Part shown: positions 23,077 to 63,436 of the stretch, piece after piece
Layout: each line of letters opens with the position of its first letter
How positions within the stretch are numbered: the stretch's first letter is position 1
NCBI GenBank assembly: GCA_023250155.1
Contig: JAHFBG010000005.1
Coordinates: 89,057 to 153,056, forward strand
From: Candidatus Melainabacteria bacterium
Lineage (GTDB): Bacteria > Cyanobacteriota > Vampirovibrionia > 2-02-FULL-35-15
DNA length: 64,000 nt
Direction of reading: 5' to 3'
Position numbers and translations under genes: made by a program
The notes under the pieces: generated by a model
Seen by the model: the letters and a program-made list of their open reading frames with translations, nothing else
Databases searched by the model: none
What the model was told of the DNA's origin: nothing

Positions 23077-23185
23077 AAGCATCTTACACTCCATATTGCC
23101 TTCCCTCAGCCCCTCCGACCATTAACTAGGCGTTAACAGTTCCCGTCGGGACATTCGGGAATGGCAATATTAAATCGTGCTTTTT
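23077..23185 (+). repeat. Copy B of the nested-hairpin repeat element
   Basis: About 85% identical to copy A. Differences are compensatory in stems (agtgcc/ggcact becomes attgcc/ggcaat; ctccc/gggag becomes ttccc/gggaa). Confidence 0.5.
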
Positions 23186-23251
23186 GTATTTAGTTATTTA
23201 GCCATCATTGACTTTTTAACAGACCCTGTAATTTGTTGTATATTAATATCC

Positions 23252-31934: not shown

Positions 31935-33962
31935 TTATACTTTACTACTTAATAAAGAATCAATCTCATATAGTCTAGCTTTTGCTTTATCACTAAAGGG
32001 GTTTAACCGTAACATAATACGAAGTGTTTGTTTAGCTTCTTCATACATCTTATTTTCTACAAATATTCTAGCAGCTTGATAATACAATTCCTCTCCCGTT
32101 ACAAAAAGAGCTTTATCATAAGAAATACTTTTTTCTAAATAGGATAAAGCTTTATCATTATTGCCTATTTTACTATAAAACAACCCAGCAAAAAGATATG
32201 GAAAGGATGACTTCGGATTTAGTTTGATATAGTTTTCTACTAAAGGTATAGCTTCATTATATTTTTTGGTTCTTAACACAATTTCAATAAACGTAGTATT
32301 GTAAGAAAGTTGAAACTTAGGATTATTGATTATAGCCTGCTTTGTAGCTTCCCAAGCCATATCCCACTTGTTTACTCGTACCAAGAAGCTTGCAATTTCA
32401 TTCCATCCAATATAATTACCTTTTACCACTAATGCAGAATCAAAAGCCTTACTTAGATCATCAAAACGTTTTGTTTCTACAAGAAAATTAAATATTAATC
32501 TATAAACCAAGTAATTATATTGCATTTGCATTGGTCCATAGCTAATTGCAAGACTAGGTTTAAGATCTAGGAATTTATCAAGCCAATCTTCAATAATAGA
32601 ACCTTTACTTAAAAAGCCAGATAGTCTATCTAATTCATTTTGTTTTCTTGCTTGCTCTATAGCAAGCTTAACCCATAATGGCTTATTCCATACAGGGGCT
32701 TCTTTAACACAATATACAAACTGATTTAGAAAATCTTTGCTAGATGGCATATAGTATAAAGTTCTACTAATCAAAAAACAAAATAAAGAAAGACAAATCA
32801 ATAAAACAAGCTTACGTTTAACTATTGATTTTGTTAACAATCCAAATAAAGCCAAAGTTAAACCTAAACTTGGAATGTATAAATATCTTAAAGCCACTAT
32901 TGAAAACAAAGGAATTATTTGAATTACTAATAACATAGAAATTAAAAACCATATTATACCTATGCTAAATAAAGGAATTGTTCTAAAAAATACTATTGCA
33001 AAAATTATTAAAGCAATTACAATACACTGGCAAAATATACTATATGGGCTCAATAAAGAATCACCTACCATATACCACTCAGCAGCACTGTCAACTAACC
33101 CGTATGGACAGAAAAATAGTTTTAAATAATGAACAAGTAATTGAGGAGAAAACCAAACTGCTCTAAATAAGATATCTTTCATTGAACCTATTTCCATCCA
33201 CCTGGTTACTAGATTTGCACTTTCTATCAAACCACCATTAGTCGCTAGATACCTTACTAAAAAATAAACAGGATAAATTGAAATTATTGAAAATAATAAT
33301 GAGAGATTTCTTTTTGTGATCAATTCTTCTCTCTTTAAAAAACAGAGAATAAAAAACAACAAAATAGGAAAAAATAAAAAATACTCTACAGACATTATCC
33401 CAAGAAGAAAAAATATATTACCTACTAACATTAGTAAATAACTTTTATATGTAATATTTCTATCTGCTACCTTTAAGTAAAGTAAAAAATAACTTAATAT
33501 AAAACCAAATCCCATTATCCCTGGACCAACTACAAGCCTAGTTAACTGTTGTTGATTAACAGGGTGTATTGTCCACAAAGAAACAATTAAAACTGATATT
33601 AATTTACTGCTAGTAATCCGACAGAATAAAATTGTAGCTAATACACAAACGATACATTGTGCAAAATATTGATAAAGATGAAAACCAAATGGAAAGGCAT
33701 TTTTACCAAAGAAAAAATTGATCAAAAAACACTGCAAACAATGAACTGGCATATAATGATCAGATACCATCCCTGTAACAGAATAAAAGGATTTAATCAC
33801 TAATTGAAAGTCCTTTGTCTGTGGAGTAATTACAAAGGAATCATCACCCCATGCTTGTCCAAAATAAATTGATTGATAATATAAAAAGCAAAACAATAAA
33901 GATGGAATGAGAAAATAATATTTTTCCAATACTCTCAAAATATAGCTTGTAATGATTTTCAT
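31935..33962 (-). CDS. Polytopic membrane protein with C-terminal TPR repeats, TMTC/PMT-like GT-C candidate
   Basis: WGDDSF first-loop acidic motif. VWFSPQLLVHYLKLFFCPYG block paralogous to the 1004 and 12653 ORFs. TPR C-terminus. Confidence 0.55.
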   Translation of the reverse strand: MKIITSYILRVLEKYYFLIPSLLFCFLYYQSIYFGQAWGDDSFVITPQTKDFQLVIKSFYSVTGMVSDHYMPVHCLQCFLINFFFGKNAFPFGFHLYQYFAQCIVCVLATILFCRITSSKLISVLIVSLWTIHPVNQQQLTRLVVGPGIMGFGFILSYFLLYLKVADRNITYKSYLLMLVGNIFFLLGIMSVEYFLFFPILLFFILCFLKREELITKRNLSLLFSIISIYPVYFLVRYLATNGGLIESANLVTRWMEIGSMKDILFRAVWFSPQLLVHYLKLFFCPYGLVDSAAEWYMVGDSLLSPYSIFCQCIVIALIIFAIVFFRTIPLFSIGIIWFLISMLLVIQIIPLFSIVALRYLYIPSLGLTLALFGLLTKSIVKRKLVLLICLSLFCFLISRTLYYMPSSKDFLNQFVYCVKEAPVWNKPLWVKLAIEQARKQNELDRLSGFLSKGSIIEDWLDKFLDLKPSLAISYGPMQMQYNYLVYRLIFNFLVETKRFDDLSKAFDSALVVKGNYIGWNEIASFLVRVNKWDMAWEATKQAIINNPKFQLSYNTTFIEIVLRTKKYNEAIPLVENYIKLNPKSSFPYLFAGLFYSKIGNNDKALSYLEKSISYDKALFVTGEELYYQAARIFVENKMYEEAKQTLRIMLRLNPFSDKAKARLYEIDSLLSSKV

Positions 33963-42071: not shown

Positions 42072-43889
42072 TCAATCTAACTCAAACTCTTTTTGCCAAT
42101 GAATATCTTCTTCTAATGGCTTTTGCTCTTTTTTATCTACAAGAAAATTGCCCATGATTAAGTAATCCATATTCGTTCTCATAAAGCAAAGATACGCTTC
42201 TTCTGGAGTACAAACAATAGGCTCTCCTCTAACATTAAACGAAGTGTTTATTACCACTCCACAACCATCCTTTTCATTTAGCTTGGAAATCATTTTATGA
42301 TATAAAAAATTGTCAGCCTTATCTACAGTCTGAACACGTGCAGAGTAGTCTACATGGGTCACTGCAGGAATAGTAGATCTGGCAATATTCAGCTTATCAA
42401 TTCCAAAAAGACTTTCTTCATCTTTTGTCATTTTACGTCGTATTTCTTCTTTTACTGGAGCGACTAGAAGCATATAAGGACTTTCAGAAGATAAATCAAA
42501 ATAATCTTGCACTTTTTCTTTTAAAACAGACGGTGCAAATGGTCTAAAACTTTCTCTAAATTTTATTTTTAAATTCATTTGTTCCTGCATCTTTGGAGAT
42601 CTGGCATCACCTATAATCGACCTAGCACCAAGGGCTCTAGGACCAAATTCCATTCTCCCTTGAAACCACCCTATTACTTTCTCACCACTAATTAACTCAG
42701 CAACCTTTCCTGCAATCTCATTGTCACTTAATTCAATATAAGGAATGTTTTTTGTTTTTAAGAAATTCTGTATATAGTTCTTATCAAAACCAGGTCCAAG
42801 ATATGAACCTTTCTGAGAGTCTTTTTTTCCACTTGCAATTCTTTTATTTCCAAGGTACTGATACCAAACAAACAATGCAGCACCTAAAGCACTACCAGCA
42901 TCTCCGGCTGCTGGCTGTATCCATATATTTTTAAATGGACTATCACGTAATATTCTTCCATTTCCTACACAGTTCAAAGCCACACCACCAGATAAGCACA
43001 AGTTTTTTAATCTTGTTTCTTTATGAGCATATTTAGCCATTCTAAGCATAATCTCTTCAGTGACTTCCTGTATCGATCGTGCAATGTCCATGTCTTTTTG
43101 AGTAAGCTTAGTCTCTGGTTTTCTTGGTTTGCTATCAAACAATTTACTAAATGCAGCATTGGTCATAGTAAGCCCAACACAATAGTCAAAATACTTCATG
43201 TTCAATCTAAATGATCCATCTTCTTTTAAATCTACTAATTCACTTAAAATAAGGTCTTTGTATTTTGGCTCTCCATACGGTGCTAATCCCATAAGCTTAT
43301 ATTCACCAGAGTTGACCTTAAACCCTGTATAGTATGTGAATGCAGAATATAATAATCCTAATGAATGGGGGAATTTTATCTCTGAAAGCAACTCTATTGA
43401 ATTATCTCTACCAATTCCCATGCTAGTAGTTGCCCATTCACCAACTCCATCCATGGTTAATATCGCTGCTTCTTGGTATGGCGATGGAAAAAAAGCACTG
43501 GAAGCATGAGACTCATGATGTTCTGGGAATATAAGCTTTCCACCATAGTTAAGTTCTTTTTGAATAAACTCTTTCATCCACAACTTTTGTTTTATCCAAA
43601 GAGGTATTGCTTTTAGAAAAGACTTTATACCAAACGGTGCATATGTCAAATATGTTTCTAAAATACGCTCAAATTTAATAAATGACTTCTCATAAAATGC
43701 TACAAAATCTAAATCAGATACTTGTATTTTTCCTTCTTGTAAACAATACTGAATAGCATTCCTTGGAAAAGCTGCATCATGTTTCTTTCGTGTGAATCGC
43801 TCTTCCTGAGCAGCCGCCACAATAACACCATCCTGCACCAAACAAGCTGCACTATCATGATAAAAAGCTGAGATTCCTAATATATTCAT
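42072..43889 (-). CDS. Carbamoyltransferase (NodU/CmcH family)
   Basis: MNILGISAFYHDSAACLV N-terminus (YrdC/Kae1-like fold), 605 aa, C-terminal carbamoyltransferase domain. Confidence 0.85.
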   Translation of the reverse strand: MNILGISAFYHDSAACLVQDGVIVAAAQEERFTRKKHDAAFPRNAIQYCLQEGKIQVSDLDFVAFYEKSFIKFERILETYLTYAPFGIKSFLKAIPLWIKQKLWMKEFIQKELNYGGKLIFPEHHESHASSAFFPSPYQEAAILTMDGVGEWATTSMGIGRDNSIELLSEIKFPHSLGLLYSAFTYYTGFKVNSGEYKLMGLAPYGEPKYKDLILSELVDLKEDGSFRLNMKYFDYCVGLTMTNAAFSKLFDSKPRKPETKLTQKDMDIARSIQEVTEEIMLRMAKYAHKETRLKNLCLSGGVALNCVGNGRILRDSPFKNIWIQPAAGDAGSALGAALFVWYQYLGNKRIASGKKDSQKGSYLGPGFDKNYIQNFLKTKNIPYIELSDNEIAGKVAELISGEKVIGWFQGRMEFGPRALGARSIIGDARSPKMQEQMNLKIKFRESFRPFAPSVLKEKVQDYFDLSSESPYMLLVAPVKEEIRRKMTKDEESLFGIDKLNIARSTIPAVTHVDYSARVQTVDKADNFLYHKMISKLNEKDGCGVVINTSFNVRGEPIVCTPEEAYLCFMRTNMDYLIMGNFLVDKKEQKPLEEDIHWQKEFELD

Positions 43890-45565
43890 CGTGAGTGATC
43901 TATTTGATAGATTACAACATGTTCCTGTTCATTGTATCCAAGCGGCTTATACATCCCATTTAATATAGGTTTACCTTGGATAATAAGATCTTTATTGTTT
44001 TGAAGTAACCAGTCACTAGATCTTAAAAACAAGTATTCAATTGGCTCTGGTAAAATCTTATTAACTTGCATTAATTGATCATTTGTAGCATCTTTAAAGA
44101 TCTGAATGACTGGATAAGTCACATAAGTAGTATGTATTCCATCGTTAAAGTATATAAACCGAGGTCTTGATCCACCTAATACCTGTTCAATTAATTCAGC
44201 TCTTCGTTTAGCTGGAATATGATAGTAATCTTCATTATAAACATATTGAACTATTGTTGATATAAAAAGAGGGGAGTAAATAAATATAAACAAGAGTGAC
44301 ACCAATGCATTCAGTATTTTAGGATGTAATTGCTTAAAAGATTTAACATATTCACTATTTGCTCTAAATACAATTACTACTAAACAAAGATAAACAGGTA
44401 AATAGTAGTAATTATAACGCCAAATATTTGAATGATATGACCTAAATAAAACATCAAAAATTAAATTAAAACTAATTATAGAAGAAAAGGAAAATAAAAC
44501 AAAAATTCTTTGAATAGAAGAAAGATACCTCCATCCAGAAAATGACAATAGGAACACCAAGAAAAGCATCAGAATATATAGTCCTAAAAATACAAAACAG
44601 GAAGTTAGATGTAGTATTTCACCTGTATATGGAAGATAATTTGTAGGGTAAATAAAATAAGGTAAAATAATCATTTTAAAAAAGTAAATAAGGTTTTTAA
44701 TTACATTGCCTGTAAAATCATTAAAATACCCACCTAAAAAATTTGCATATACCTGAGTAAGATCTTGTTCTGGTGAAAAGTTCATCATGGGTGCAACAGG
44801 AAGAAATATAAATTTGTTGGCAATACAAAAAAGAATCACAAATAAGCCAAAAGAAGAAGCTAAAAAAGCAAAAAATGGGATTTTTGTATTGATCATTTTC
44901 CCAGTAATATTTGTCCTATAAGCCGCTACTATAAAACAAAGTATTCCAAAGAAATAACCTATATACAAGCTCTTATATAAAAATAAAATCAATAAAGAAA
45001 GTGAGATTTTAAGTATCGTCCAAAAATTAAATGCACCTTTATCATAATCTTTAAAAATTAAATAAACAAATAAACAAAGCAACAGGCATCCACACTGTTC
45101 CATCATTGCAGTGTCACAATTTTTTAAAATACCCGGAGTAAATAAATATGAGAGAGAAACAATAAAAGCCAATTTATGACTATCTTTTACAAGAGTTAAA
45201 ATAATAAAATACATTAGTATGCAAACACCAAGTCCACATAACCAATTAGCAAAATAAGCTACATACATTGACACTCCAAAGATTTTAAAAAATATTGCTA
45301 AGAAAACAGAATAGAGTGGGTAGTTAATAATATGTGTAGGATAACCATACTTTATAAGACCCATTATGGTATACGACCTTGCTTCAAAATCACCATCCTG
45401 AGCTATTCCTCTGGCTATAGACATATAATTCACTTCATCCCAGCCAAGTTTTTGCTCAAATAGAACTTGAACAACGACATAAGTTATTAACCAGATTAAT
45501 ATAATTAGTGAAACATAAACAATGTTTTTTTTGTCAGGCATTAATTTTGTTTTCATTTCTAGCAA
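43886..45565 (-). CDS. GT39/GT83 (PMT/ArnT-like) GT-C glycosyltransferase
   Basis: KLGWDEVNY DE motif in first loop, then YxxxxxxxGW/MxxxxxxxxG pattern. About 11 TM. Confidence 0.6.
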   Translation of the reverse strand: MLEMKTKLMPDKKNIVYVSLIILIWLITYVVVQVLFEQKLGWDEVNYMSIARGIAQDGDFEARSYTIMGLIKYGYPTHIINYPLYSVFLAIFFKIFGVSMYVAYFANWLCGLGVCILMYFIILTLVKDSHKLAFIVSLSYLFTPGILKNCDTAMMEQCGCLLLCLFVYLIFKDYDKGAFNFWTILKISLSLLILFLYKSLYIGYFFGILCFIVAAYRTNITGKMINTKIPFFAFLASSFGLFVILFCIANKFIFLPVAPMMNFSPEQDLTQVYANFLGGYFNDFTGNVIKNLIYFFKMIILPYFIYPTNYLPYTGEILHLTSCFVFLGLYILMLFLVFLLSFSGWRYLSSIQRIFVLFSFSSIISFNLIFDVLFRSYHSNIWRYNYYYLPVYLCLVVIVFRANSEYVKSFKQLHPKILNALVSLLFIFIYSPLFISTIVQYVYNEDYYHIPAKRRAELIEQVLGGSRPRFIYFNDGIHTTYVTYPVIQIFKDATNDQLMQVNKILPEPIEYLFLRSSDWLLQNNKDLIIQGKPILNGMYKPLGYNEQEHVVIYQIDHSR

Positions 45566-47270
45566 TTGCTCCTATAGCTGGCTCTTGTAATCTATAAACA
45601 ACAACTTTATTCTCTAAATCTACCCCATAATATACATAAGAGTTATCAACTATAGGTTGTCCTTTTAATATGTTAGCTTCATTTTCTTTAAATAGTGGAT
45701 TTTCTGGCTGAAGAAATAAAAACTCTATAGGCTTTGGAAGTTTGTGATTTATAAGTTTAAGCTGATCATTAGACATATCCATTAAAACAACTCTCATTGG
45801 ATATAAATCCCAATTGGTATGCTGTCCAGTATTGAAGTAAATAAACATAGGATTTATATTTCCAACAAATTTTCTTACTATTTCAGCATTTTTATGTGCA
45901 ATACCATGATATAAATCTTTATTCCATTGAGAGATTCTCAAGGCATCTAAATTGAGTGGAACATATACAAGTAGAATAAATATCAAAGCAATAACACTAC
46001 TGCCTTTTTTATATTCACACATAAAAGGTAAAAAATATTTTCTGTTGACCCATAAAATGATTCCTGATGAAATTAAAAGCAATGGTACATAAAGTAAATT
46101 ATACCTACACCTAACACCAATACAACTACCTGCAATTAAATTAAAAATAGTATTTAAGATCAAAATTGAAGTTATTGTAAGAACAATAAAAGCTCTATGT
46201 ACAGGCAAAAGCTCTTTCCATGATAGAAATAAAAAAACTACGATATAGATGAAAATTAAATAATATAATCCAAATTCAAGCCAAGCCGGACTAAAATTAT
46301 ACATTGCTTCTGTATCCATTCCTAAGACTAACATTGGAAACCTTGGGAAATAATATATAACCACATTTTGAATAAAGCCACTAAAGTTATTAATTGCATT
46401 ATTAATAGGATTATGAAAAAAGCCACCTGCAAAATCTGCATACGTACCCAAGATTTCTGTCTTTCTATCAAAGTTCATCATAGGTGCTAAAGGAAGAAAA
46501 ATATATTTTGTAAAAATAAAATAAATACTTGAAAACACACCAAGATAAATAAATAGATGTGCATACCAAGGTCGTTTTGTTTTAACACTTAATCCCATTT
46601 GTTTCACATTACAAAGCATAAAAATAAGAATAATAAAACCAAAAACAATACCGATAAAAAGACTCTTAAAGAAATAAAGCCATATAGCTGCTATTGCCAG
46701 CAAGACTATATTAATCTTACCTTTTGAAATATCTTTAAATATAAAATAAGTAAAAATAGACACTAAGGCACAACCTGGAACCTCCATCATCGCTGAATCA
46801 CAATAGTCCACAATCCTAGGTAAAAATAAAAAAGTTATTCCTGTAAAAAAAGAAAACAGTCTATGATTAGTCATTAATAGCATAGTTAAATAAACAAAAA
46901 TACAAACCACTAAACCACAAAGCCATGTTGAAAAGTAAGCTACATTAATCGATGTTCCAAATAGTTTAAAAAAAATGGCAAGATATGTAGAGTAAACAGG
47001 ATAATGATGAGTATGCTGTGGAAAAGGATATTTAATCGTGCCTAAAACGGTCGTAGTTCTAGTACTGAAATCAAAATCTTTTACTATGCCTTTAGCAGTA
47101 GATAAATAACTGTTTTCATCCCATACAATTTTTTGCTCCCAACAAAGTGTACAAATCACATATATAATCAGCCAAATAAAAAAAATTAAAGCAGGGTATA
47201 AATATTTGGCTTTATCATTATCTATAGAAAATACCTTTTCTATAGGATTCTTACCCACATTACTTATCAT
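45534..47270 (-). CDS. GT39/GT83 (PMT/ArnT-like) GT-C glycosyltransferase, tandem paralog
   Basis: KIVWDENSY DE motif. Collinear similarity to 43886..45565. 32-nt overlap with it. Confidence 0.6.
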   Translation of the reverse strand: MISNVGKNPIEKVFSIDNDKAKYLYPALIFFIWLIIYVICTLCWEQKIVWDENSYLSTAKGIVKDFDFSTRTTTVLGTIKYPFPQHTHHYPVYSTYLAIFFKLFGTSINVAYFSTWLCGLVVCIFVYLTMLLMTNHRLFSFFTGITFLFLPRIVDYCDSAMMEVPGCALVSIFTYFIFKDISKGKINIVLLAIAAIWLYFFKSLFIGIVFGFIILIFMLCNVKQMGLSVKTKRPWYAHLFIYLGVFSSIYFIFTKYIFLPLAPMMNFDRKTEILGTYADFAGGFFHNPINNAINNFSGFIQNVVIYYFPRFPMLVLGMDTEAMYNFSPAWLEFGLYYLIFIYIVVFLFLSWKELLPVHRAFIVLTITSILILNTIFNLIAGSCIGVRCRYNLLYVPLLLISSGIILWVNRKYFLPFMCEYKKGSSVIALIFILLVYVPLNLDALRISQWNKDLYHGIAHKNAEIVRKFVGNINPMFIYFNTGQHTNWDLYPMRVVLMDMSNDQLKLINHKLPKPIEFLFLQPENPLFKENEANILKGQPIVDNSYVYYGVDLENKVVVYRLQEPAIGAIARNENKINA

Positions 47271-48153
47271 TAAAAATCCTTTTTTTCATTAGGACAGCAA
47301 TTAAACCTAAAGAAAGTGTAAAGAGTGCAATGCCTTGTACAATAACATAAACCATAATCCCAAAAGAAACACTTAAACCTTCTGTAAAAACAGGAACTAG
47401 CAATGCTACCAAACCTAACATACTAATCACTCCTGCAATTAACATAAACAATTTAATAGGATTATAAAGTGTAATAGTCTCAGTTAGAATTTGTGCAGAT
47501 CTTAAAATATCTCGAACATACCTTACTTTAGACTTTCCGATACGTGGTCTGTATTCAATGGGAAAATAATATACAGATAAGCCTTCAAGAATAAAAATCA
47601 GTGTAGTAGACAATGAAAAAGAAAATCCACTAGATGTATGTGGAAAATATTTTATAATGGTTGATTTTCTAAATACTCTAAGACCAGAGTTTACATCAAG
47701 GATCTTTTCTCCTGCCACGAACTGAGCTAATTGTTTAAAACAATATCTTGAAAGTTTTTTTAAGAAAGGGTCAAAGCTTTTTAAATTTGTTCTTTTCCCA
47801 ATAATCAAGTCATATCCTTCTTCAAGTTTTTTCATCATCAGTAAAATGTCTTCAATAGGATATGTGCCATCAGCATCTGTAATTGCAATAATATCTCCAG
47901 AGGCAGCAGCAATACCTTTCTTTATAGAAAATCCATAACCTTTATTGTAAGGATTTCTAACAAGCTTAATATCTGCTCGATTTTTTAAAATCTCATGAGT
48001 ACCATCAAATGAGCCATCATCTACAATTACTATTTCCCATAAAACTTTTCCTAATAAGAATTTAATCTCATCTATTGTTTTTTCAATCGCACCTCTCTCA
48101 TTAAAACAAGGAATTACAAGTGAAATTTTTTCTGTTTTGTCTGCTTTTTCCAT
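47260..48153 (-). CDS. Polyprenyl-phosphate sugar synthase, GT2 (Dpm1/ArnC-like)
   Basis: ISLVIPCFNE…VDDGSFDGT…ITDADG motifs. C-terminal TM helices. Overlaps downstream GT39 by 11 nt. Confidence 0.8.
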   Translation of the reverse strand: MEKADKTEKISLVIPCFNERGAIEKTIDEIKFLLGKVLWEIVIVDDGSFDGTHEILKNRADIKLVRNPYNKGYGFSIKKGIAAASGDIIAITDADGTYPIEDILLMMKKLEEGYDLIIGKRTNLKSFDPFLKKLSRYCFKQLAQFVAGEKILDVNSGLRVFRKSTIIKYFPHTSSGFSFSLSTTLIFILEGLSVYYFPIEYRPRIGKSKVRYVRDILRSAQILTETITLYNPIKLFMLIAGVISMLGLVALLVPVFTEGLSVSFGIMVYVIVQGIALFTLSLGLIAVLMKKRIFNDK

Positions 48154-54771: not shown

Positions 54772-55473
54772 ATGATAACCAGAATACCAAACCAAACTCC
54801 AAATTTGGATCTAAACCAACGCACGAGAAAATATCTTGAGTTGGTAAGTCACTCCCATCCTGACGAATTAAAAAAACTTGGTGTAGATACTACTAACCTT
54901 GATAAATTAAATGGTGAAGCTGTAAAAAAGTTTGCAATGCTTGTAAAACCAATTCAAATCCAGGCTTTCTGTGAGCTATTAAAAACTTTCAATACTCATG
55001 AACTTGCAGAAATGACAAACCCTAATACAGGAGTTGTCCATATAAATGAAAGAATTGTTGCAGCACAACTCTTAATCGAAAAAGGAATTTCACCTGAGGA
55101 TAGACAACTTGAGTTAGATATCGTTAAGGATGAAGAGGATTTTCCAATAGCAGGCAGCAACTATGATAAAGATACAAAAGAAAATGATGGATTATTAAGA
55201 GCGGAACTTGTTGAGGCACTTATAAAATCTGGCGACAAAAGTCATGAGCTTATAGAAGCACTTAAAGAAATACTAAATAATATGATAGCTGAACCGTCAT
55301 TATCTAAGATTCTTGAAAATGGCTTAAATACAAAAAATCATAATTTTTATTTTACCGCCTTTTTATACTTCTTATCGGAACTATATCATCTTGACAAGAA
55401 ATCTGCCGAAGAAATAATGAAACCATTTGGTATTTCAAAGGAAAGTCTTAATCCTGGATTTATCTCTAATTAA
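54772..55473 (+). CDS. Hypothetical protein (233 aa)
   Basis: ORF with coding-like composition only. Confidence 0.35.
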   Translation: MITRIPNQTPNLDLNQRTRKYLELVSHSHPDELKKLGVDTTNLDKLNGEAVKKFAMLVKPIQIQAFCELLKTFNTHELAEMTNPNTGVVHINERIVAAQLLIEKGISPEDRQLELDIVKDEEDFPIAGSNYDKDTKENDGLLRAELVEALIKSGDKSHELIEALKEILNNMIAEPSLSKILENGLNTKNHNFYFTAFLYFLSELYHLDKKSAEEIMKPFGISKESLNPGFISN

Positions 55474-55733: not shown

Positions 55734-56741
55734 ATGGTAGAAACCCTTGTAAAAAAAGAAACGAGTGAAAATCCCTTATTAACACATATGAATGGAAAAC
55801 GAACAGTAAAAATATTTTCAGGCCGAGCAAATGTACCTCTTTCTACGGACATTTGTAATTATCTAAACTTACCGCTTGGGAAAATAAAAATAGATCCTTT
55901 TTCTGATGGTGAGTTATACGTTCAGATACAAGAAAGCGTACGTGGTTGTGATGTATTTGTAATCCAGCCTACATGCCCACCCGTAAATGAAAATATAATG
56001 GAGCTTTTAATTGTAATTGACGCACTAAAGAGAGCTAGTGCAGAAAAAATTACACTAGTAATGCCTTACTATGGTTATGGTAGACAAGACAGAAAAGCTG
56101 CTGGCAGAGAAGCTATTACAGCAAAACTTGTAGCAGATTTACTTGGTCAAGCTGGTACGACAAGAATACTTGCATTAGATTTACATGCTACACAAATAGT
56201 AGGATTTTTTGATGTTCTTGTAGATCATTTATTTGCAACACCTGTATTAGTAGATCACATAAAGTCATTAAATTTAAAAGATATTGTTGTAGTAAGCCCT
56301 GACGTAGGTGGCGTAACAAGAGCTAGAGCGTTTGCTAAAAAATTAAACGATGCTCCTATTGCTATTCTTGATAAAAGAAGACCAGTAGATAAACACAATA
56401 CAGTTGAAGTCATAAATATCATCGGAGAAATTAAAGGTAAGACTTGCATCATAGTAGATGACATGATTGATACAGCAGGGACCATTACCCAAGGTGCAGA
56501 GCTCTTAGCTAAAGAAGGTGCTAAAGAAGTCTTAGCTTGTTCTACACATGCTGTTTTATCTGGTCCAGCAAAAGATAGAATTGACAAATCTCCATTAACT
56601 ACTTTAATAGTAACAAACTCAATACCAGTACCATCTGAAAGAAAACCTAAAAAATTAACGACATTAAGTGTAGCTGGTTTACTTGCTGAAGCTATTAAGA
56701 GAATTCATCTAGATGACTCTGTTAGTGAGATGTTTGAATAG
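55734..56741 (+). CDS. prs: Ribose-phosphate pyrophosphokinase
   Basis: FSDGELYVQIQESVRGCDVFVIQPT; PRPP-binding loop IVDDMIDTAGTI. Confidence 0.9.
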   Translation: MVETLVKKETSENPLLTHMNGKRTVKIFSGRANVPLSTDICNYLNLPLGKIKIDPFSDGELYVQIQESVRGCDVFVIQPTCPPVNENIMELLIVIDALKRASAEKITLVMPYYGYGRQDRKAAGREAITAKLVADLLGQAGTTRILALDLHATQIVGFFDVLVDHLFATPVLVDHIKSLNLKDIVVVSPDVGGVTRARAFAKKLNDAPIAILDKRRPVDKHNTVEVINIIGEIKGKTCIIVDDMIDTAGTITQGAELLAKEGAKEVLACSTHAVLSGPAKDRIDKSPLTTLIVTNSIPVPSERKPKKLTTLSVAGLLAEAIKRIHLDDSVSEMFE

Positions 56742-56920
56742 TACAGTGTGTCTGTACGCATGGACTTAACCATATAAGATATAATACTTTATGTTTTCTC
56801 ATTAGAGACAATAAAAAGTAAATTCTAAGCAAAGGATGTTGCGATGAGCAATATTCTTTGCGTCGAGAGGGAAAAGGAAAAATCTTGTTTGATCCGAGAT
56901 TTTTCCGATTAAAAAGAAAA

Positions 56921-56992
56921 GGGCAGTTAGCGCAGTGGTAGCGCACCTCGTTTACACCGAGGGGGTCATAGGTTCAAATCCTATACTGCCCA
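56921..56992 (+). tRNA. tRNA-Val (anticodon TAC)
   Basis: Hand-folded cloverleaf: acceptor GGGCAGT/ACTGCCC, D arm GCGC-AGTGGTA-GCGC, anticodon arm CCTCG-TTTACAC-CGAGG, T arm ATAGG-TTCAAAT-CCTAT. No encoded CCA. Confidence 0.8.
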
Positions 56993-57011
56993 AGTTTTTA
57001 TATAGCGCTCT

Positions 57012-57040
57012 GCATTTCATAATGAAATGCTTCGCTTTTT
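57012..57040 (+). terminator. Rho-independent terminator after tRNA-Val
   Basis: gcatttcat-a-atgaaatgc hairpin followed by ttcgcttttt. Confidence 0.5.
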
Positions 57041-57254
57041 GTGATTTCATTTCACGACGTTCCGGTTTTTCGCTTATGGAAAAACCTACACTTGGGATTT
57101 TGCTATAACAATCTTCATAAAATAGGTTAACGACCTTAACCTAGAATACAGATTCTAGAAATCTTAAATCAATATAAATAATTCACCTTAACCACTCTTT
57201 GTATTGTGAAATATAACCTATATAAATTAATACTATTGTGAAAGGATTTTTTAA

Positions 57255-60224
57255 ATGAACAAGTATATTCCAGCCAAATTATTTTTATCTTTTATATTAA
57301 TGGTCCAGTTATTGGTCTTACAAAATTTTTATCCTTTATATTCTCAAGCAGCGATGCCAACCTGTAGTGGAACCACAGCTGTATGCCCTTCTGGCCAAAC
57401 TGCGGTTTGTACAAATGGCCATGTTGGTACAGCAAAGTGTGTAGCACAAATTTATGGTGCACCTTATATACCAGGCTGTGAAACAGAGACTGCTTTCTAT
57501 ACTGATGATGCTAATTGTGTTAGCTCATCAACTACTAGCTCATCAACTACTAGTTCATCGACCACAAGCTCATCAACTACCAGCTCTACTAGTGGAACAT
57601 TGTCGATTACAAGTAATTCCCCTTTACCAAATGGCTCATTAAATACTTCTTACTTTAATTCACTTCAAGCTACAGGTGGTTCCCTTCCATATACCTGGTC
57701 ATGGGTTACTGGTTTCCTGCCAAGTGGTTTATTATTTACTACAAACGGTATATTGAACGGTACTCCTACTCAATCTGGTACTTTTACTCCTACCTTTAGA
57801 GTTACTGATTCTTTTAATCAAACTGCTCAACGAACTTTTTCTCTTACTATTGGAGCTCCTATATCAATTACAAGCAGTTCTGTTTTACCTAACGGTACAT
57901 CAAACTCTTTTTATTCTAATACACTTCAAGCTACTGGCGGCACTCTTCCTTACTCCTGGACATTTATTGCAGGTACTTTACCTAGTGGTTTATCATTTAG
58001 TTCTAATGGTGTTTTAAGTGGTACTCCTACTCAATCGGGTACATTCACTCCTACCTTTAGAGTTACTGATGCTTTTGGACAATCCAGCCAACAAACCTTC
58101 TCCCTTACAGTAAATTCTTTTCTGTCAATTACAACTAATGCTTTATCTAATGGTACTTTAAACTCTTTTTATTCCAATACACTTCAAGCTACTGGCGGCA
58201 ACCTTCCTTATACCTGGGCATTTATTGCAGGTACTTTACCTAGCGGTTTATCATTTAGTTCTAATGGTGTTTTAAGTGGTACTCCTACTCAATCGGGTAC
58301 ATTCACACCTACCTTTAGAGTTATTGATGCCATTGGACAATCTAGCCAAAGAACTTTCTCTCTTACTGTAAATTCCTCCCTATCAATTACAACTAGTGCT
58401 TTATCTAATGGTACTTTAAACTCTTTTTATTCCAATACACTTCAAGCTACTGGCGGCACTCTTCCTTACTCCTGGACATTTATTGCAGGTACTTTACCTA
58501 GTGGTTTATCATTTAGTTCTAACGGTGTCTTAAGTGGTACTCCTACCCAATCTGGTACTTTCACTCCTACCTTTAGAGTTACTGATGCTTTTGGACAATC
58601 CAGCCAACAAACCTTCTCTCTTACGGTAAATTCTTCTCTGTCAATTACAAGTACTACTTTATCTAACGGTACTTTAAACTCTTTTTATTCCAATACACTT
58701 CAAGCTACTGGCGGCACTCTTCCTTATTCTTGGTCATTTATTGCAGGTACTTTACCGAGTGGTTTATCATTTAGTTCTAATGGCGTTTTAAGTGGCACTC
58801 CTACTCAATCTGGTACATTCACTCCTACCTTTAGAGTTACTGATGCTCTTGGTAGCACTTTTCAAAGAACTTTCTCTCTTACTGTCAATTCTTCTCTATC
58901 AATTACAACTAGTGCTTTATCCAATGGTATTTTAAATACTTTTTACTCTTATACAGTCCAAGCTACTGGCGGTACTCTTCCATATAGCTGGTCACTTATT
59001 GCTGGTACTTTAGCAAGCGGTTTATCGTTTAGTTCAAATGGTATTGTAAGTGGTACTCCTACTCAAACAGGTACTTTTACTCCTACCTTTAGAGTTATTG
59101 ATGCCCTTGGACAGTCTAGCCAAAGAACTTTCTCTTATACCATTGCCTTACCATTATCTATTACAACTAGTCCTACCCTACCTAATGGTTCTCTAATTGC
59201 TTCTTACTCCAATACACTTCAAGCTACTGGTGGTACTCTTCCTTATACCTGGTCATTTATTGCTGGTACTTTACCTAGTGGTTTATCATTTAGCTCAAAT
59301 GGGGTTGTAAGTGGTACTCCTACTCAAACAGGCACATTCACTCCTACTTTTAGAGTTACTGATGCTCTTAGTCAATCTAGTCAACGAACTTTCTCCATTA
59401 CTGTAGATTCTTCTCAATGCCCTGTATGTCCACTTGGTTCTCCATTAGTACAATGCTCTAATACTTGTACACAACAAGTTATTAATTGTGAAGGAATGAG
59501 CTATACAAATAGCTGTGACTTCCAAATGAGTTATTGCGGCTGTATCCCAACAACATCTTCAAGCAGCTCATCATCTTCTTCAAGCAGCTCTTCTGGAGGG
59601 GTTTGTCAAAGACCTTGTGGAATAGGTTGTTGTACATCTAATCAACTCTGTGTTGTATATGATCCTTGTATGGGGAGTCCTGGTTGTTTAGCACCTATTG
59701 TTCAATATTGTGCTTCACCAACCGGTGGTGCAGTCAACCTCCCATTCTGTTCATATGGAAGTGTAATGTGTGATGTGGGTTCACCGTTGTGTTCTTCAGG
59801 AAGCAATCTTCCTATCTGTGGTTCAACACTAGGATTTACTGGTGACTTAGCTGGTCCTGCATGTACAAATCTAACAACAACAGTATTAAATGTAGGAAAT
59901 GTCTCTTGTTCACAACAACCTCTAAGCAGACTTTCTCTTGATAATGATGTTACTTGTAATAAGAACAAGCTGTGTCCATCAGGGAAGCGATATAGAGCTT
60001 GTAGAGAAGATAGAACAACATGTAAGTGTGTTTGTCCATTTAGAATTAGAGGACAAAAAGTTACACCTACTTGTAATTCCACAGATACACCAATCTGTTC
60101 AAAAGGCTTAACACCTAAGTGCGGAAATGAAAACAATATTCCATTCTGCTCTAAAGGAAAACTATTCTGTGTAGAACCAACTGCACAATCGATAGATTTA
60201 ACTGATACTATTGAGTGTAAGTAA
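57255..60224 (+). CDS. Secreted surface/adhesin-like protein: signal peptide, Ser/Thr-rich linker, ~7.5 tandem He_PIG/cadherin-like Ig repeats, poly-Ser tract, Cys-rich C-terminal domain
   Basis: MNKYIPAKLFLSFILMVQLLVL signal sequence. SSSTTSSSTT linker. ~81-aa repeats with LP.G..F...G.LSGTPT..GTF.PTFRV.D motif. S13GG tract. Many Cys in the last 230 aa. Confidence 0.65.
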   Translation: MNKYIPAKLFLSFILMVQLLVLQNFYPLYSQAAMPTCSGTTAVCPSGQTAVCTNGHVGTAKCVAQIYGAPYIPGCETETAFYTDDANCVSSSTTSSSTTSSSTTSSSTTSSTSGTLSITSNSPLPNGSLNTSYFNSLQATGGSLPYTWSWVTGFLPSGLLFTTNGILNGTPTQSGTFTPTFRVTDSFNQTAQRTFSLTIGAPISITSSSVLPNGTSNSFYSNTLQATGGTLPYSWTFIAGTLPSGLSFSSNGVLSGTPTQSGTFTPTFRVTDAFGQSSQQTFSLTVNSFLSITTNALSNGTLNSFYSNTLQATGGNLPYTWAFIAGTLPSGLSFSSNGVLSGTPTQSGTFTPTFRVIDAIGQSSQRTFSLTVNSSLSITTSALSNGTLNSFYSNTLQATGGTLPYSWTFIAGTLPSGLSFSSNGVLSGTPTQSGTFTPTFRVTDAFGQSSQQTFSLTVNSSLSITSTTLSNGTLNSFYSNTLQATGGTLPYSWSFIAGTLPSGLSFSSNGVLSGTPTQSGTFTPTFRVTDALGSTFQRTFSLTVNSSLSITTSALSNGILNTFYSYTVQATGGTLPYSWSLIAGTLASGLSFSSNGIVSGTPTQTGTFTPTFRVIDALGQSSQRTFSYTIALPLSITTSPTLPNGSLIASYSNTLQATGGTLPYTWSFIAGTLPSGLSFSSNGVVSGTPTQTGTFTPTFRVTDALSQSSQRTFSITVDSSQCPVCPLGSPLVQCSNTCTQQVINCEGMSYTNSCDFQMSYCGCIPTTSSSSSSSSSSSSSGGVCQRPCGIGCCTSNQLCVVYDPCMGSPGCLAPIVQYCASPTGGAVNLPFCSYGSVMCDVGSPLCSSGSNLPICGSTLGFTGDLAGPACTNLTTTVLNVGNVSCSQQPLSRLSLDNDVTCNKNKLCPSGKRYRACREDRTTCKCVCPFRIRGQKVTPTCNSTDTPICSKGLTPKCGNENNIPFCSKGKLFCVEPTAQSIDLTDTIECK
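57597..59410 (+). repeat. Tandem ~243-nt coding repeats (~7.5 copies); some units near-identical at nucleotide level
   Basis: Repeat units 2 and 4 encode identical peptide stretches (TLPYSWTFIAGTLPSGLSFSSNGVLSGTPTQSGTFTPTFRVTDAFGQSSQQTFSLTVNS). Confidence 0.7.
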
Positions 60225-60329
60225 AACTCCAGCCAATAGCAAATTGGGGAATTAAACAAAGAGGAATCTACTCACAGATAACGTTAGTAGATTCTTCATT
60301 TTGTTCAGAGTGACTTTACTGGTTTATAA

Positions 60330-61667
60330 TCAATACTTATCTCGTAATACTTCTTCTTGCTCTTCGCGAGGTATTTCTTCATTTGTTAATTCGCCAGAAA
60401 TACTCTTTGTTCTTATAATACTTGCACCTATAGAGCTTAGTTTCTGATCCAGATTTTCATAACCACGATCCAGATGGATTAGTCCTGTTACTTCAGTTTT
60501 ACCTTCTGCTATTAAGCCTGCTACAACTAAACCTGCTCCCCCACGTATATCACGAGCTATTATTTTCGTACCACTTAGTTTTTTGACTCCATTAATTACA
60601 GCAACGTTATTGCTTACTTTTATGTCTGCTCCCATCCTTACCAATTCATTTATATTAGCAAAGCGTTCTTCATAGATAGTTTCTTTTATTGTACTTGTAC
60701 CATTGGCTACAGAAAGCGGTACTGTAATTAGTGCCTGAACATCTGTAGGAAAGCCTGGATACCATCCTGTGCTAATGGTTACTGCATTAAGTTTTTTTGT
60801 GTTTGGCTTAGTTTTCAATGTATACGGATCTATTATTTCAACTAATGCACCAGCCTCCTGTAACTTACTTAAGGTAGCTTGTATGTGTTCTATATTTATA
60901 TTTTTCAATACAAGCTCTCCACCTGTACATATTCCAGCCATTAAATAAGTACTAGCTTCTAACCTATCTGAAATAGCTGTATATTCAGTAGAATGTAATT
61001 CTTTTGGGCTTATTCCTTTAATTGTAATTTGGTGTGTTCCAGCTCCTTGAATTTTTGCTCCCATAGAAATTAAGAAGTTTGCAAGATCTGTTATTTCTGG
61101 ATCACAAGCTGCATTTTCAATAATCGTTTCCCCATCTGCTAAAACACTTGCAAGCATAATATTTTCAGTAGCACCATTACTTGGTAAATCAAGGTAAACT
61201 CGTGTACCTGTTAACTTGTTTGCATGGGCAATCATATACCCTTGATCAAAAACAATCTCAGCTCCTAAAGCTTTCAACCCCTTTTCATGAAGATCCAGTC
61301 TGCGAGCCCCTATTTGACACCCACCTGGTAATGCTACTTTTGCTTCCTTAAACCTTCCAACTAAAGCACCTAAAACATTGAACGAAGCCCTCAATCTATT
61401 TACTAGTTCGTTCGGTGCAAATGAACCAGAAATTTCAGAGCTATCAATTTCTAAAGTACTATTTTTAAACTTAACTTTTGCTCCTAAAAATTCTAAAACC
61501 TCTAACATGCTGTATACATCAGCAAGATTTGGTACATTTTTTATGTAGACAGAGCCTGGGTAAAGCAGTGATGCAGCCATTTGTTTTAAAACAGCATTTT
61601 TAGCACCAGCAACGGTTAATTCACCTGATAATTTATTTCCACCAGTTATGACTAATTTTTCTTCCAT
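60330..61667 (-). CDS. murA: UDP-N-acetylglucosamine 1-carboxyvinyltransferase
   Basis: MEEKLVITGGNKLSGELTVAGAKNAVLK N-terminus, 445 aa, EPSP-synthase-like fold length and motifs. Confidence 0.9.
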   Translation of the reverse strand: MEEKLVITGGNKLSGELTVAGAKNAVLKQMAASLLYPGSVYIKNVPNLADVYSMLEVLEFLGAKVKFKNSTLEIDSSEISGSFAPNELVNRLRASFNVLGALVGRFKEAKVALPGGCQIGARRLDLHEKGLKALGAEIVFDQGYMIAHANKLTGTRVYLDLPSNGATENIMLASVLADGETIIENAACDPEITDLANFLISMGAKIQGAGTHQITIKGISPKELHSTEYTAISDRLEASTYLMAGICTGGELVLKNINIEHIQATLSKLQEAGALVEIIDPYTLKTKPNTKKLNAVTISTGWYPGFPTDVQALITVPLSVANGTSTIKETIYEERFANINELVRMGADIKVSNNVAVINGVKKLSGTKIIARDIRGGAGLVVAGLIAEGKTEVTGLIHLDRGYENLDQKLSSIGASIIRTKSISGELTNEEIPREEQEEVLRDKY

Positions 61668-61783: not shown

Positions 61784-63436
61784 ATGGCCTACAGAGATCT
61801 TAGAGAGTTCTTAAATAAACTTGAGGAGCTAAATGAACTTCAAAGAATAAGAGTTCAGGTTGACCCTTATTTAGAAGTCTCTGAAATTACAGATAGGGTC
61901 TCAAAGGGTATACATGAGAAAAACAAAGCCTTACTTTTCGAAAATATTAAAGGGTATCAGATTCCAATATTGATTAATACCTTAGGCTCTTATAAAAGAA
62001 TGAATCTAGCTCTTGGTATTAATTCCTTTAAAGAGATTGCTCAAAGGATTGAAAAGTTCCTTGAAAAGAAAGTACCTGACAATCTTATTGGCAAATTAGG
62101 TATGCTGCCAAAATTAATAGAACTAGCCTCAATCCCTCCCAAAATGACTAAATTTGCTCCATGCCAAGAAATAGTGATTACAAATCCAGCTGAGCCTATG
62201 TTAGATAAGCTCCCTATTATTACAGCATGGCCTGAAGATGCAGCCCCTTTTATTACACTTACAGTAGTTATTACTAAAGATCCAAAAACAGGTGTTAGAA
62301 ACATTGGAATGTATAGGCTTCAAAAGCTCAACAATAGTACTACCTGCATGCACTGGCATAAGCATCATGATGGAGCACAAAACTATTTAGAAACAGCTAT
62401 TGAATCCCAGTTAAATCAAGTTAAAGATACTTTGTGTAAGGAAGTAAGTGCTATTGAAAACGAAAAAGCTCTAGAAGAATTTGTTGGTATAATGAGCAAT
62501 CCGCGGTCAGCGGTCAACAATCAGCCAACAGCTTCTACTCAATCCTCAATCCTCCCGCCCAATGAGGCGAGGCTCGCTGGAAGCGGCAATCCTCAATCCT
62601 CCCGTAAAATGGAAGTAGCTGTAGTTATAGGCTGTGATCCTAGTGTTATGTACGCAGCATCAGCACCTCTTCCACCAGGAATAGATGAGTTTCTATTTGC
62701 TGGATTTTTAAGAAGTTCACCAGTAGAACTTATTAAGTGTAAAACAATAGATGTTGAAGTTCCTGCAACAAGCGAAATAGTCCTAGAAGGATATGTAGAT
62801 TTAGATGAACTTACTACTGAAGGTCCATTTGGAGATCATACAGGCTTTTACAGTATGCCAGCCTTATTCCCAAAATTTCATATTACAGCAATGACACATA
62901 GAAAAGATCCTATTTATTCAACCATTATTGTAGGAAAACCTCCTATGGAGGATTGTTATATGGGTAAAGCAACAGAACAAATTTTCTTACCTTTAATTAG
63001 AGTGTTTTTACCTGAAATTGTAGATATGAATTTACCATTTGAAGGCGTATTTCACAATTGTGCAATAGTAAGCATAAAGAAAAAATACCCTGCACATGCA
63101 AAAAAAGTAATGAGTGCTATTTGGGGTATAGGACAATTAATGTTTACAAAATATGTTATCGTCGTAGATGATGATATCAATGTTCATGATTTATCTGAGG
63201 TGGCATTTAAAGTTTTTGCAAATACTGATCCCAAGCGTGACTCAATGTTTAGTGAAGGACCTACCGATATATTAGATCATGCATCTACCATATCGTCTAT
63301 CAGTGGCAAGATGGGACTAGATGCTACAAGAAAATGGAAATCAGAAGGATATACCCGTCAGTGGCCTTCTGAAATGACCATGGATTCTAAGACCAAAGAT
63401 CTTGTATCAAATCGATGGAATGAGTACGGTTTATAA
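61784..63436 (+). CDS. UbiD-family (prenylated-FMN-dependent) decarboxylase with ~45-aa in-frame GC-rich insertion
   Basis: N-terminal YRDLREFLNKLEE…, FENIKGY; central and C-terminal UbiD blocks. 550 aa, longer than typical UbiD because of the SNPRSAVNNQPTASTQSSILPPNEARLAGSGNPQSS insert. Confidence 0.8.
   Translation: MAYRDLREFLNKLEELNELQRIRVQVDPYLEVSEITDRVSKGIHEKNKALLFENIKGYQIPILINTLGSYKRMNLALGINSFKEIAQRIEKFLEKKVPDNLIGKLGMLPKLIELASIPPKMTKFAPCQEIVITNPAEPMLDKLPIITAWPEDAAPFITLTVVITKDPKTGVRNIGMYRLQKLNNSTTCMHWHKHHDGAQNYLETAIESQLNQVKDTLCKEVSAIENEKALEEFVGIMSNPRSAVNNQPTASTQSSILPPNEARLAGSGNPQSSRKMEVAVVIGCDPSVMYAASAPLPPGIDEFLFAGFLRSSPVELIKCKTIDVEVPATSEIVLEGYVDLDELTTEGPFGDHTGFYSMPALFPKFHITAMTHRKDPIYSTIIVGKPPMEDCYMGKATEQIFLPLIRVFLPEIVDMNLPFEGVFHNCAIVSIKKKYPAHAKKVMSAIWGIGQLMFTKYVIVVDDDINVHDLSEVAFKVFANTDPKRDSMFSEGPTDILDHASTISSISGKMGLDATRKWKSEGYTRQWPSEMTMDSKTKDLVSNRWNEYGL
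62501..62605. repeat. GC-rich repeat element inserted in frame in the UbiD gene; contains a ctcaatcctcaatcctcccg direct repeat and the shared tcccgccca…ggcgaggctcgct core
   Basis: Sequence read directly. The core matches the element at 2191..2288. Confidence 0.5.

Follow-up and report, generated by a model that had tools for sequence, protein, structure and literature searches.

Fibrillar adhesins combine a stalk of repeated domains with a distal adhesive domain and a cell-surface anchor, and nearly half of the fibrillar-adhesin-like proteins have no known anchor (PMC8286594). Here, we describe a gene located at positions 57255 to 60224 of a 64,000-nucleotide stretch of Candidatus Melainabacteria DNA (contig JAHFBG010000005.1), which is referred to as the window. 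The encoded 989-residue protein, the target of this analysis, shares with fibrillar adhesins that have a He_PIG stalk a signal peptide, a long He_PIG array, low-complexity linkers and terminal non-repeat domains. It differs from them in its cysteine (Cys)-rich ends, which are absent from Pfam and NCBIfam, and in featuring no known adhesive or anchor domain. Its C-terminal domain (CTD) is uncatalogued and marks a small family of secreted proteins that are modular and restricted to one lineage. The new element is this CTD family and the Cys-rich termini; as a whole, the target is a modular surface or secreted protein, which is a known kind. Melainabacteria, a diderm sister lineage of Cyanobacteria, are uncultured save for very few representatives. 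To our knowledge, there is no information on how the surface of these cells is constructed or decorated.

The combination of a constant terminus and variable passengers that characterizes the CTD family is also seen with LPXTG tails, C-terminal domains of the type IX secretion system (T9SS) and autotransporter barrels. For instance, the T9SS cargo of Bacteroidota includes many secreted or surface proteins of a single lineage, such as adhesins and proteases, which are otherwise unrelated and end with one conserved domain, Por_Secre_tail, at their extreme C-terminus. In contrast, the CTD is twice as long, contains 18 Cys and is found in a Melainabacterium, in which no T9SS genes were seen; no match to Por_Secre_tail or to a TIGR04183-type domain was obtained in Pfam or NCBIfam. 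The layout of several family members, in which 6-Cys modules alternate with spacers of Ser/Thr or poly-Ser, recalls peritrophin-type CBM14 proteins and the Jacob lectins of Entamoeba. The target differs from CBM14, hevein and Kazal proteins in that it has no corresponding Pfam match and in that no counterpart of its CTD fold was found in PDB. One relative (P0021) features genuine Kazal domains, and a Cys region of the target (region A) resembles them weakly. Chlamydial OmcB and OmcA and the planctomycetal YTV proteins are lineage-specific, exported, disulfide-cross-linked and very Cys-rich envelope-associated proteins of diderms. No sequence or domain similarity was detected between these proteins and the target. 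Moreover, the number of Cys in the CTD family is even and fixed per module, which suggests intramolecular rather than intermolecular disulfides.

The original prediction, made from the letters of the window alone, had singled out this reading frame as a 989-residue surface protein. The frame was borne out: it starts with ATG, is complete up to its stop codon, and the gene is genuine. The protein contains 40 Cys, 6 of which lie at residues 37–88 and 34 at residues 722–988. Only 28 fall within the last 230 residues, for which a count exceeding 40 had been given. Cys numbers are even in each module (6, 8, 8 and 18). The Cys-rich end had rightly been called unusual, since it contains an uncatalogued domain. 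A likeness to EGF or knottin modules had also been proposed, and received no support from either Pfam matches or PDB folds. The features of the gene and of its surroundings are reported in Table 1.

Table 1. Features of the target gene, its protein and the surrounding window. Positions refer to the window; aa, amino acid residues of the target; TRF, Tandem Repeats Finder; AF2, AlphaFold2.
Feature	Position	Strand	Description	Basis
Target reading frame	57255..60224	+	989 aa plus stop	
Shine-Dalgarno-like AAAGGA	57241..57246	+	8 nt ahead of ATG	read from sequence
Sec-type leader (predicted)	57255..57350	+	aa 1-32; K-containing n-region, hydrophobic core, conserved end QNFYPLYSQA	
N-terminal 6-Cys module	57357..57518	+	aa 35-88 (Cys 37, 44, 52, 62, 75, 88)	alignment A3, hhalign, AF2
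Ser/Thr linker (SSSTT)x4-SSTSGT	57519..57599	+	15-nt repeat	TRF
Seven tandem He_PIG (PF05345) Ig-like domains	57600..59414	+	86-87 aa each	Pfam, TRF, unit table
He_PIG unit starts	57600, 57861, 58122, 58380, 58638, 58896, 59154			
Cys region A	59418..59543	+	aa 722-763, 8 Cys; no Pfam match at E<=1	
Poly-Ser tract S13	59556..59594	+	aa 768-780, then GG (to aa 782)	sequence
Cys region B	59604..59711	+	aa 784-819, 8 Cys; CxxxCGxxCCxxxxxCxxxDPCxGxPGCxxPxxxYC	phmmer alignments, sequences
CTD	59736..60221	+	aa 828-989, 162 residues, 18 Cys	HMMER family, alignment A1, AF2
CTD subdomain 1			aa 828-886, 6 Cys; followed by variable loop	
CTD subdomain 2			~aa 907-989, 12 Cys counting C901	
tRNA-Val (anticodon UAC)	56921..56992	+	upstream neighbour	ARAGORN; Rfam RF00005, 74 bits
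Terminator-like hairpin and T run	57012-57030		after tRNA-Val	terminator scan
Stable hairpin, then U-rich run	60255..60305	.	arms GAATCTACT / AGTAGATTC; between convergent target gene and murA	
Paralogous proteins of ~750-800 aa (six or more)	1004-3406, 3467-5749(-), 5803-8121, 8121-10421, 12653-14908, 15019-17382			
Radical SAM/SPASM protein	10558-11679			
NDP-sugar enzymes	23177-25314			
Asn synthase	25512-27509	-		
Carbamoyltransferase	42072-43889	-		
PMT_2-like GT-C enzyme	45534-47270	-		
GT2	47260-48153	-		

The C-terminal 274 residues of the target have no Pfam match at E<=1, the full-length protein has no relevant match in NCBIfam, and a CTD profile matched no PDB sequence at E<=10. A word-index search with the same 274 residues recovered a single relative. 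The family emerged when 1.84 billion representative proteins were searched exhaustively with phmmer, which returned 39 matches, 36 of them at E<=1e-10; these 36 relatives are clusters at 50% identity. In all of the 34 strongest matches, the alignment either reaches the protein's C-terminus or ends at most about 7 residues short of it.

Alignment A1 includes 27 complete CTD copies of about 160 residues. It features 16 invariant and 2 nearly invariant Cys columns, the motifs CGSxxG[FL]xGxxxGPGC and CREDxxxCxCxCxF, and a terminal IDLxDx[IV]xC[KR] pattern, often with a basic tail. The target ends with IDLTDTIECK, and has neither an LPxTG motif nor a hydrophobic tail. In 26 of the 27 copies there are exactly 18 Cys, which occupy the same columns with no extras. 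The lone exception lacks exactly C74 and C96, corresponding to C901 and C923 of the target, as would be expected if these two residues form a disulfide. The A1 profile matches aa 828-989 of the target over the full length of the profile (188 bits, E=2e-57), and all 18 Cys are present. The AF2 model of the CTD is compact and consists of two subdomains (pLDDT 92.2, pTM 0.85). No similar structure was found in PDB or BFVD, and on the basis of this model the CTD is a candidate new fold relative to solved structures (PDB) and predicted viral structures (BFVD). A literature search on Cys-rich proteins of Melainabacteria returned nothing relevant.

The opposite end of the target carries a related module. 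A profile built from alignment A3 identified the N-terminal 6-Cys module next to the leader (71.6 bits, E=3.5e-21, aa 35-90). When A3 was compared to A1 by hhalign, the module aligned with CTD positions 3-58 (probability 95.8%, E=7.5e-9), with 6 of 6 Cys in register. The AF2 model of the module (pLDDT 93.9) shows the same seven-strand succession as CTD subdomain 1. The N-terminal module is homologous to this subdomain, and the target thus starts and ends with related modules. No second copy of either the CTD or the N-terminal module was found in the window with the A1 and A3 profiles.

Two smaller Cys modules precede the CTD. Region B is located directly ahead of the CTD also in P0002-P0005 (relatives are cited by protein, P, or locus, L, numbers), and a similar module is present in P0038. 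The phmmer alignments with P0003-P0005 begin at residues 65-68 of the query, and the one with P0002 begins at residue 13. Region A was aligned by hhalign with the Kazal segments of P0021 and P0026 with a probability of 86%, over 29 columns. The target has no Pfam match to Kazal_1 or Kazal_2, and region A is possibly a degenerate Kazal-like module, judging from this weak resemblance.

The end of the leader follows a Q-[SN]-F-x-P-x-Y-[SG] pattern kept across the family (QNFYPLYS in the target). The same leader is found in P0002, P0004, P0005, P0010, P0012, P0019-P0022, P0026, P0029 and L003. By the -3/-1 rule, cleavage would occur after S-Q-A. A lipoprotein was ruled out, as the first Cys lies 1-6 residues past the conserved Y-[SG] and there is no lipobox. 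An autotransporter was also ruled out, as there is no barrel domain.

Most family members carry the N-terminal 6-Cys module, and vary extensively in the passenger located between the two ends. He_PIG domains are the passenger in P0003, matrixin-like HExxH metalloproteases in P0007 and P0011, and Kazal domains, scoring above the Kazal thresholds, in P0021. A scan of the other members identified no known domain. P0002, P0004 and P0005 feature long helical repeats, and in some members the passenger is an array of small Cys modules spaced by Ser/Thr or very long poly-Ser tracts. In P0009, P0019-P0022 and P0035, copies of the 6-Cys module and of subdomain 1 recur inside the protein, set apart by Ser/Thr spacers. 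Subdomain 2 occurs once per protein, at the extreme C-terminus only. At least one member, P0008, is made of the leader and the CTD alone.

Passengers vary even at the same chromosomal position. Positional orthologues found in three genomes (L003 5149-6489, L018 8001-9836 and L005 8001-10955) share the downstream lpxI and SNase genes, and have the same leader and CTD and unrelated middle regions. The L003 and L018 members are adjacent to, and divergent from, a flagellar rod operon (fliE, flgB, flgC, flgF, flgG), and have cytochrome c peroxidase and aspartate kinase genes downstream. The shared neighbourhood of the three members may simply be conserved synteny.

CTD loci are rare. One was found among 185,579 GTDB species genomes, in a Melainabacteria metagenome-assembled genome, and three in JGI metagenomes; these counts are lower bounds, as the search relied on a 5-sequence alignment and two peptide patterns only. 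The two samples that yielded the contigs of the organism are also the source of P0001 (L002), P0002 and P0003, which links these members to the organism at the level of the sample.

Additional members and neighbours illustrate the diversity of these proteins. In L002 (1-2024, second sample), Cys modules are spaced by poly-Ser totalling more than 300 residues, and one in-frame stop lies inside poly-Ser; the gene could be a pseudogene or a split gene, or the stop could be an assembly error in low-complexity DNA. The gene directly downstream of P0003 (L005 11285-16375) encodes a 1696-residue protein featuring the leader, the N-terminal module, He_PIG domains, a Kelch-like end and no CTD. Hence, the cassette formed by the leader and the N-terminal module is in wider use than the CTD. 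The neighbour of P0033 (L018 9854-11122) encodes an exported protein of 422 residues with different small Cys modules at its N- and C-termini, an indication that the lineage has a broader set of secreted proteins capped by Cys modules. Two tandem CTD-family genes are present in the JGI contig L012 (2-418 and 487-1371). The corresponding metagenome (3300025311) also holds a relative with 87% GyrB identity.

In the target, the passenger is a He_PIG array. The repeats matched the Pfam He_PIG profile in 7 stretches (E=7e-90, 296.1 bits versus a gathering cut-off of 24), and weaker PKD and Big matches overlap these domains. A profile search of this kind had been suggested in the original prediction, and its tandem Ig-like repeats turned out to be seven He_PIG domains. 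About 7.5 units of 243 nt had been proposed. Instead, there are 7 units of 258-261 nt, and TRF reported 6.8 copies of a 258-nt period (57657-59415, score 2182). The description of the repeats as near-identical suits some units only, as pairwise identity ranges from 72 to 92% in DNA and from 63 to 92% in protein; units 2-5 are 86-92% identical in DNA. Similarly, units 2 and 4 had been thought to encode identical peptides. They share 72 consecutive identical residues and are 92% identical overall. The identical residues are encoded with 8 synonymous codon differences, which points to an older duplication kept by purifying selection, not to recent homogenization. The Ser/Thr linker derives from a 15-nt repeat (TRF, 4.4 copies, 57521-57586) rather than from a 12-nt one, and the S13GG tract was found as described. 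Assembly collapse of the repeats was ruled out, since the longest identical run shared by any two units (89 nt, units 2 and 4) is shorter than the assembler k of 141, and an ENA contig is identical to the window across the gene.

The stalk itself is commonplace. In a full-length search, more than 5,500 proteins from many phyla matched the repeats at 36-48% identity, covering at most about 69% of the target (mostly about 61%), a portion that comprises little more than the repeats. Those with a name are called "putative Ig domain-containing protein". The search was dominated by He_PIG proteins, and no orthologue of the target was found among its matches. The target thus has the stalk of repeated domains of fibrillar adhesins (PMC8286594). 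A known adhesive domain was not found, as there is no Pfam match outside the repeats. Neither Pfam at E<=1 nor NCBIfam revealed any of the known anchors (LPxTG, SLH, CHU_C, Por_Secre_tail, LysM, autotransporter or YadA barrel, RTX/LapG).

Taken together, the leader, the Cys numbers, which are even and fixed, and the paired loss of two Cys suggest that the target is exported and stabilized by intramolecular disulfides. The constant CTD beneath swapped passengers, including enzymes, can be read as a shared anchoring or targeting module. We favour, with a confidence that stops a little short of even, the view that the target is exported by the Sec route, locked by disulfides and displayed as a fibrillar-adhesin-like surface fibre, with the CTD as its tether. 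The anchoring role assigned specifically to the CTD is a more tentative proposal. The surface protein of the original prediction is thus retained as far as it looks extracytoplasmic and adhesin-like, as evidenced by the leader, the He_PIG stalk, the even Cys numbers and the paired Cys loss; location at the cell surface is a proposed extension of these sequence features.

In such a fibre, the leader would be cleaved, and the mature chain would begin with the 6-Cys module, followed by the flexible Ser/Thr linker and by the rod of seven He_PIG domains. From the general size of Ig-like domains, a seven-domain rod would be in the order of tens of nm long. The rod would be followed by the two small Cys modules, split by poly-Ser, and by the CTD, which would contain nine disulfides. 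The CTD would attach interchangeable passengers to one shared location, either on the cell envelope or within it, and the homologous N-terminal 6-Cys module would sit at the far end of the fibre.

Several observations weigh against this view. The existence of P0008 would be surprising if the CTD were purely an anchor or a sorting tag, and hints at an independent function of the CTD. The 1696-residue protein of L005 indicates that the CTD is not required for proteins of this sort. Within the CTD, there is no hydrophobic or amphipathic membrane segment and no recognizable wall- or lipopolysaccharide-binding motif, and its structure is a prediction obtained from 27 sequences. No conserved partner gene was seen beside family members.

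A broader hypothesis, which we regard as rather unlikely, is that the leader, the 6-Cys module and the 18-Cys CTD constitute a previously undescribed surface display or anchoring system, specific to a clade of Melainabacteria (Vampirovibrionia) and based on a disulfide-rich fold for which no structural relative is known. This would be a functional counterpart of the LPXTG/sortase system or of the T9SS C-terminal domain in the non-photosynthetic sister lineage of Cyanobacteria. Whatever the role of the CTD, one hypothetical protein becomes a defined family, whose architecture runs from a leader through a 6-Cys module and a variable passenger to an 18-Cys CTD. The A1 profile can annotate the members found so far, and the nine predicted disulfides of the CTD, including C901-C923, are a testable prediction. 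If the CTD is an anchoring or sorting module, it would represent a new envelope-targeting principle in diderms and provide a handle on the surface proteome of the lineage. If it is merely another lineage-specific domain of unknown function, the gain in annotation is modest.

As the main alternative, the CTD and the 6-Cys modules could be lectin-like modules that bind a ligand, probably a glycan, rather than anchors. The protein would then be either a bivalent cross-linker or an adhesin tipped by the CTD, and would act on the polysaccharide of the cell itself or on the wall of a prey, host or neighbour. This is possible, and we consider it somewhat doubtful. It agrees with the existence of P0008, with the repetition of subdomain 1 copies and 6-Cys modules between Ser/Thr spacers, with the homology between the two ends of the target, and with the approximately 50 kb of glycan-biosynthesis genes present in the window. 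However, no likeness to Pfam carbohydrate-binding families or PDB folds was found, and the restriction of subdomain 2 to a single copy at the extreme C-terminus is unexpected for a freely shuffled binding module. Moreover, a CTD placed at the tip would leave the mature protein with no identified anchor.

The strict C-terminal position of the CTD below unrelated cargo, including proteases, and the conservation of the terminal IDLxDx[IV]xCK sequence with its optional basic tails are also compatible with a secretion or sorting signal. Such a signal would address a dedicated outer-membrane export machine and would later be removed or processed, like the T9SS C-terminal domain or the pre-peptidase C-terminal (PPC) domain of secreted proteases. 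We hold this to be improbable. The CTD has no match to Por_Secre_tail, to other T9SS models or to PPC models, and, with 162 residues and nine disulfides, it would by far exceed known sorting domains in size and complexity. In addition, CTD-only proteins would carry no cargo, and no candidate machinery was found beside the family genes.

According to the original prediction, the repeats predispose the gene to changes in copy number by recombination, the target being a contingency-type surface antigen subject to length or antigenic variation. A tandem array of 7 related units, with the high identity of units 2-5, and the fast turnover of passengers between positional orthologues are in line with this possibility. 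The other data speak against it, and we assign it a low probability. The units have diverged, with an identical run of just 89 nt at most and silent changes beneath the peptide shared by units 2 and 4. In the ENA contig ERZ27280021 k141_2415248, which is 100% identical to the window over 15.4 kb, the whole gene is present with the same 7 units. A contig from a second sample (L016, ERZ27276474) is 99.99% identical over 9.66 kb and stops at window position 57809, inside unit 1. Its interruption could reflect repeat heterogeneity, but is also the expected behaviour of short-read assemblers at repeats. No allele with a different number of units was found.

The organism belongs to Melainabacteria, judging by its GyrB, which shares 87% identity with the GyrB of Candidatus Melainabacteria bacterium RIFCSPLOWO2_02_FULL_35_15 and about 62-66% with those of Caenarcaniphilales and Obscuribacterales. 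It is probably diderm, since its relatives possess lpxI and MlaD genes and the window contains a weak LptD_N-like match, below the Pfam cut-off. The target gene is preceded by recF, dciA, gyrB, a 233-residue orphan, prs and tRNA-Val, and is followed by murA, on the opposite strand, and by a ubiD-like gene. The recF-dciA-gyrB-orphan-prs order is kept in relatives with 87-89% GyrB identity, and everything beyond prs differs. The comparison of window 56921-57255, L009 14193-14300 and the ERZ27296333 gene table revealed that past prs each of the three genomes has a different set of genes. In L009/L010, tRNA-Val also follows prs, and the gene order is interrupted directly after it.

The proximity of the gene to tRNA-Val (262 nt) had been taken as the mark of an insertion hotspot, a claim of which the break in gene order at this site is confirmed. 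It is nevertheless very improbable that a genomic island integrated at tRNA-Val recently brought in the gene as cargo. No integrase or mobility gene was found among the reading frames up to about 6 kb away on both sides (the search did not extend to direct repeats of the tRNA 3'-end), murA and the ubiD-like gene beyond the target likewise differ from those of relatives, third-position G+C (GC3) is native, and both the samples of the organism and related genomes of the lineage contain family paralogues. The differences beyond the target indicate a rearrangement breakpoint, not an insertion. Rearrangement at this breakpoint is recurrent, and no mobile element is visible there. The GC3 of the target (0.19) is within the range of the other genes (0.17-0.26). 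The G+C content of the window is 31.6%, and the higher value of the target is due to its second-position G+C (GC2) of 0.59, which results from its Ser, Thr, Gly, Pro and Cys composition. Its codon usage is native, with no sign of foreign origin.

Rfam analysis of positions 56700-60400 identified the tRNA as the sole match. In a promoter scan, sigma-70-like sites were fewer than in shuffled sequences, and none was located upstream of the target gene. The RNA hairpin downstream of the gene has a folding energy of -25.8 kcal/mol (z=-2.83), and none of 200 shuffled sequences was equally stable. It is probably a terminator serving both the target gene and murA.

Positions 1-50000 of the window correspond to a large region of glycan or surface-polysaccharide biosynthesis (Table 1). 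This region is the sole circumstantial hint at the O-glycosylation that the original prediction had proposed for the SSSTT linker and the S13GG tract, which are thus putative sites. Among the paralogous proteins of about 750-800 residues, those encoded at 1004-3406 and 12653-14908 carry C-terminal TPRs, as does a protein of 675 residues (31935-33962, minus strand). The 8121-10421 protein matches the membrane-protein family DUF2298, and the remaining paralogues have no Pfam match. If these paralogues are GT-C enzymes with TPR ends, their architecture would recall that of protein O-mannosyltransferases. On the other side of the target, the central UbiD domain of the UbiD-like decarboxylase (61784-63436) was matched in two stretches, and seems to be split at about residues 215-270 by a low-complexity insertion of a few tens of residues. 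The orphan gene located between gyrB and prs (54772-55473) has no Pfam match and is kept in position, with a length of 237-238 residues, in the relatives with 87-89% GyrB identity.

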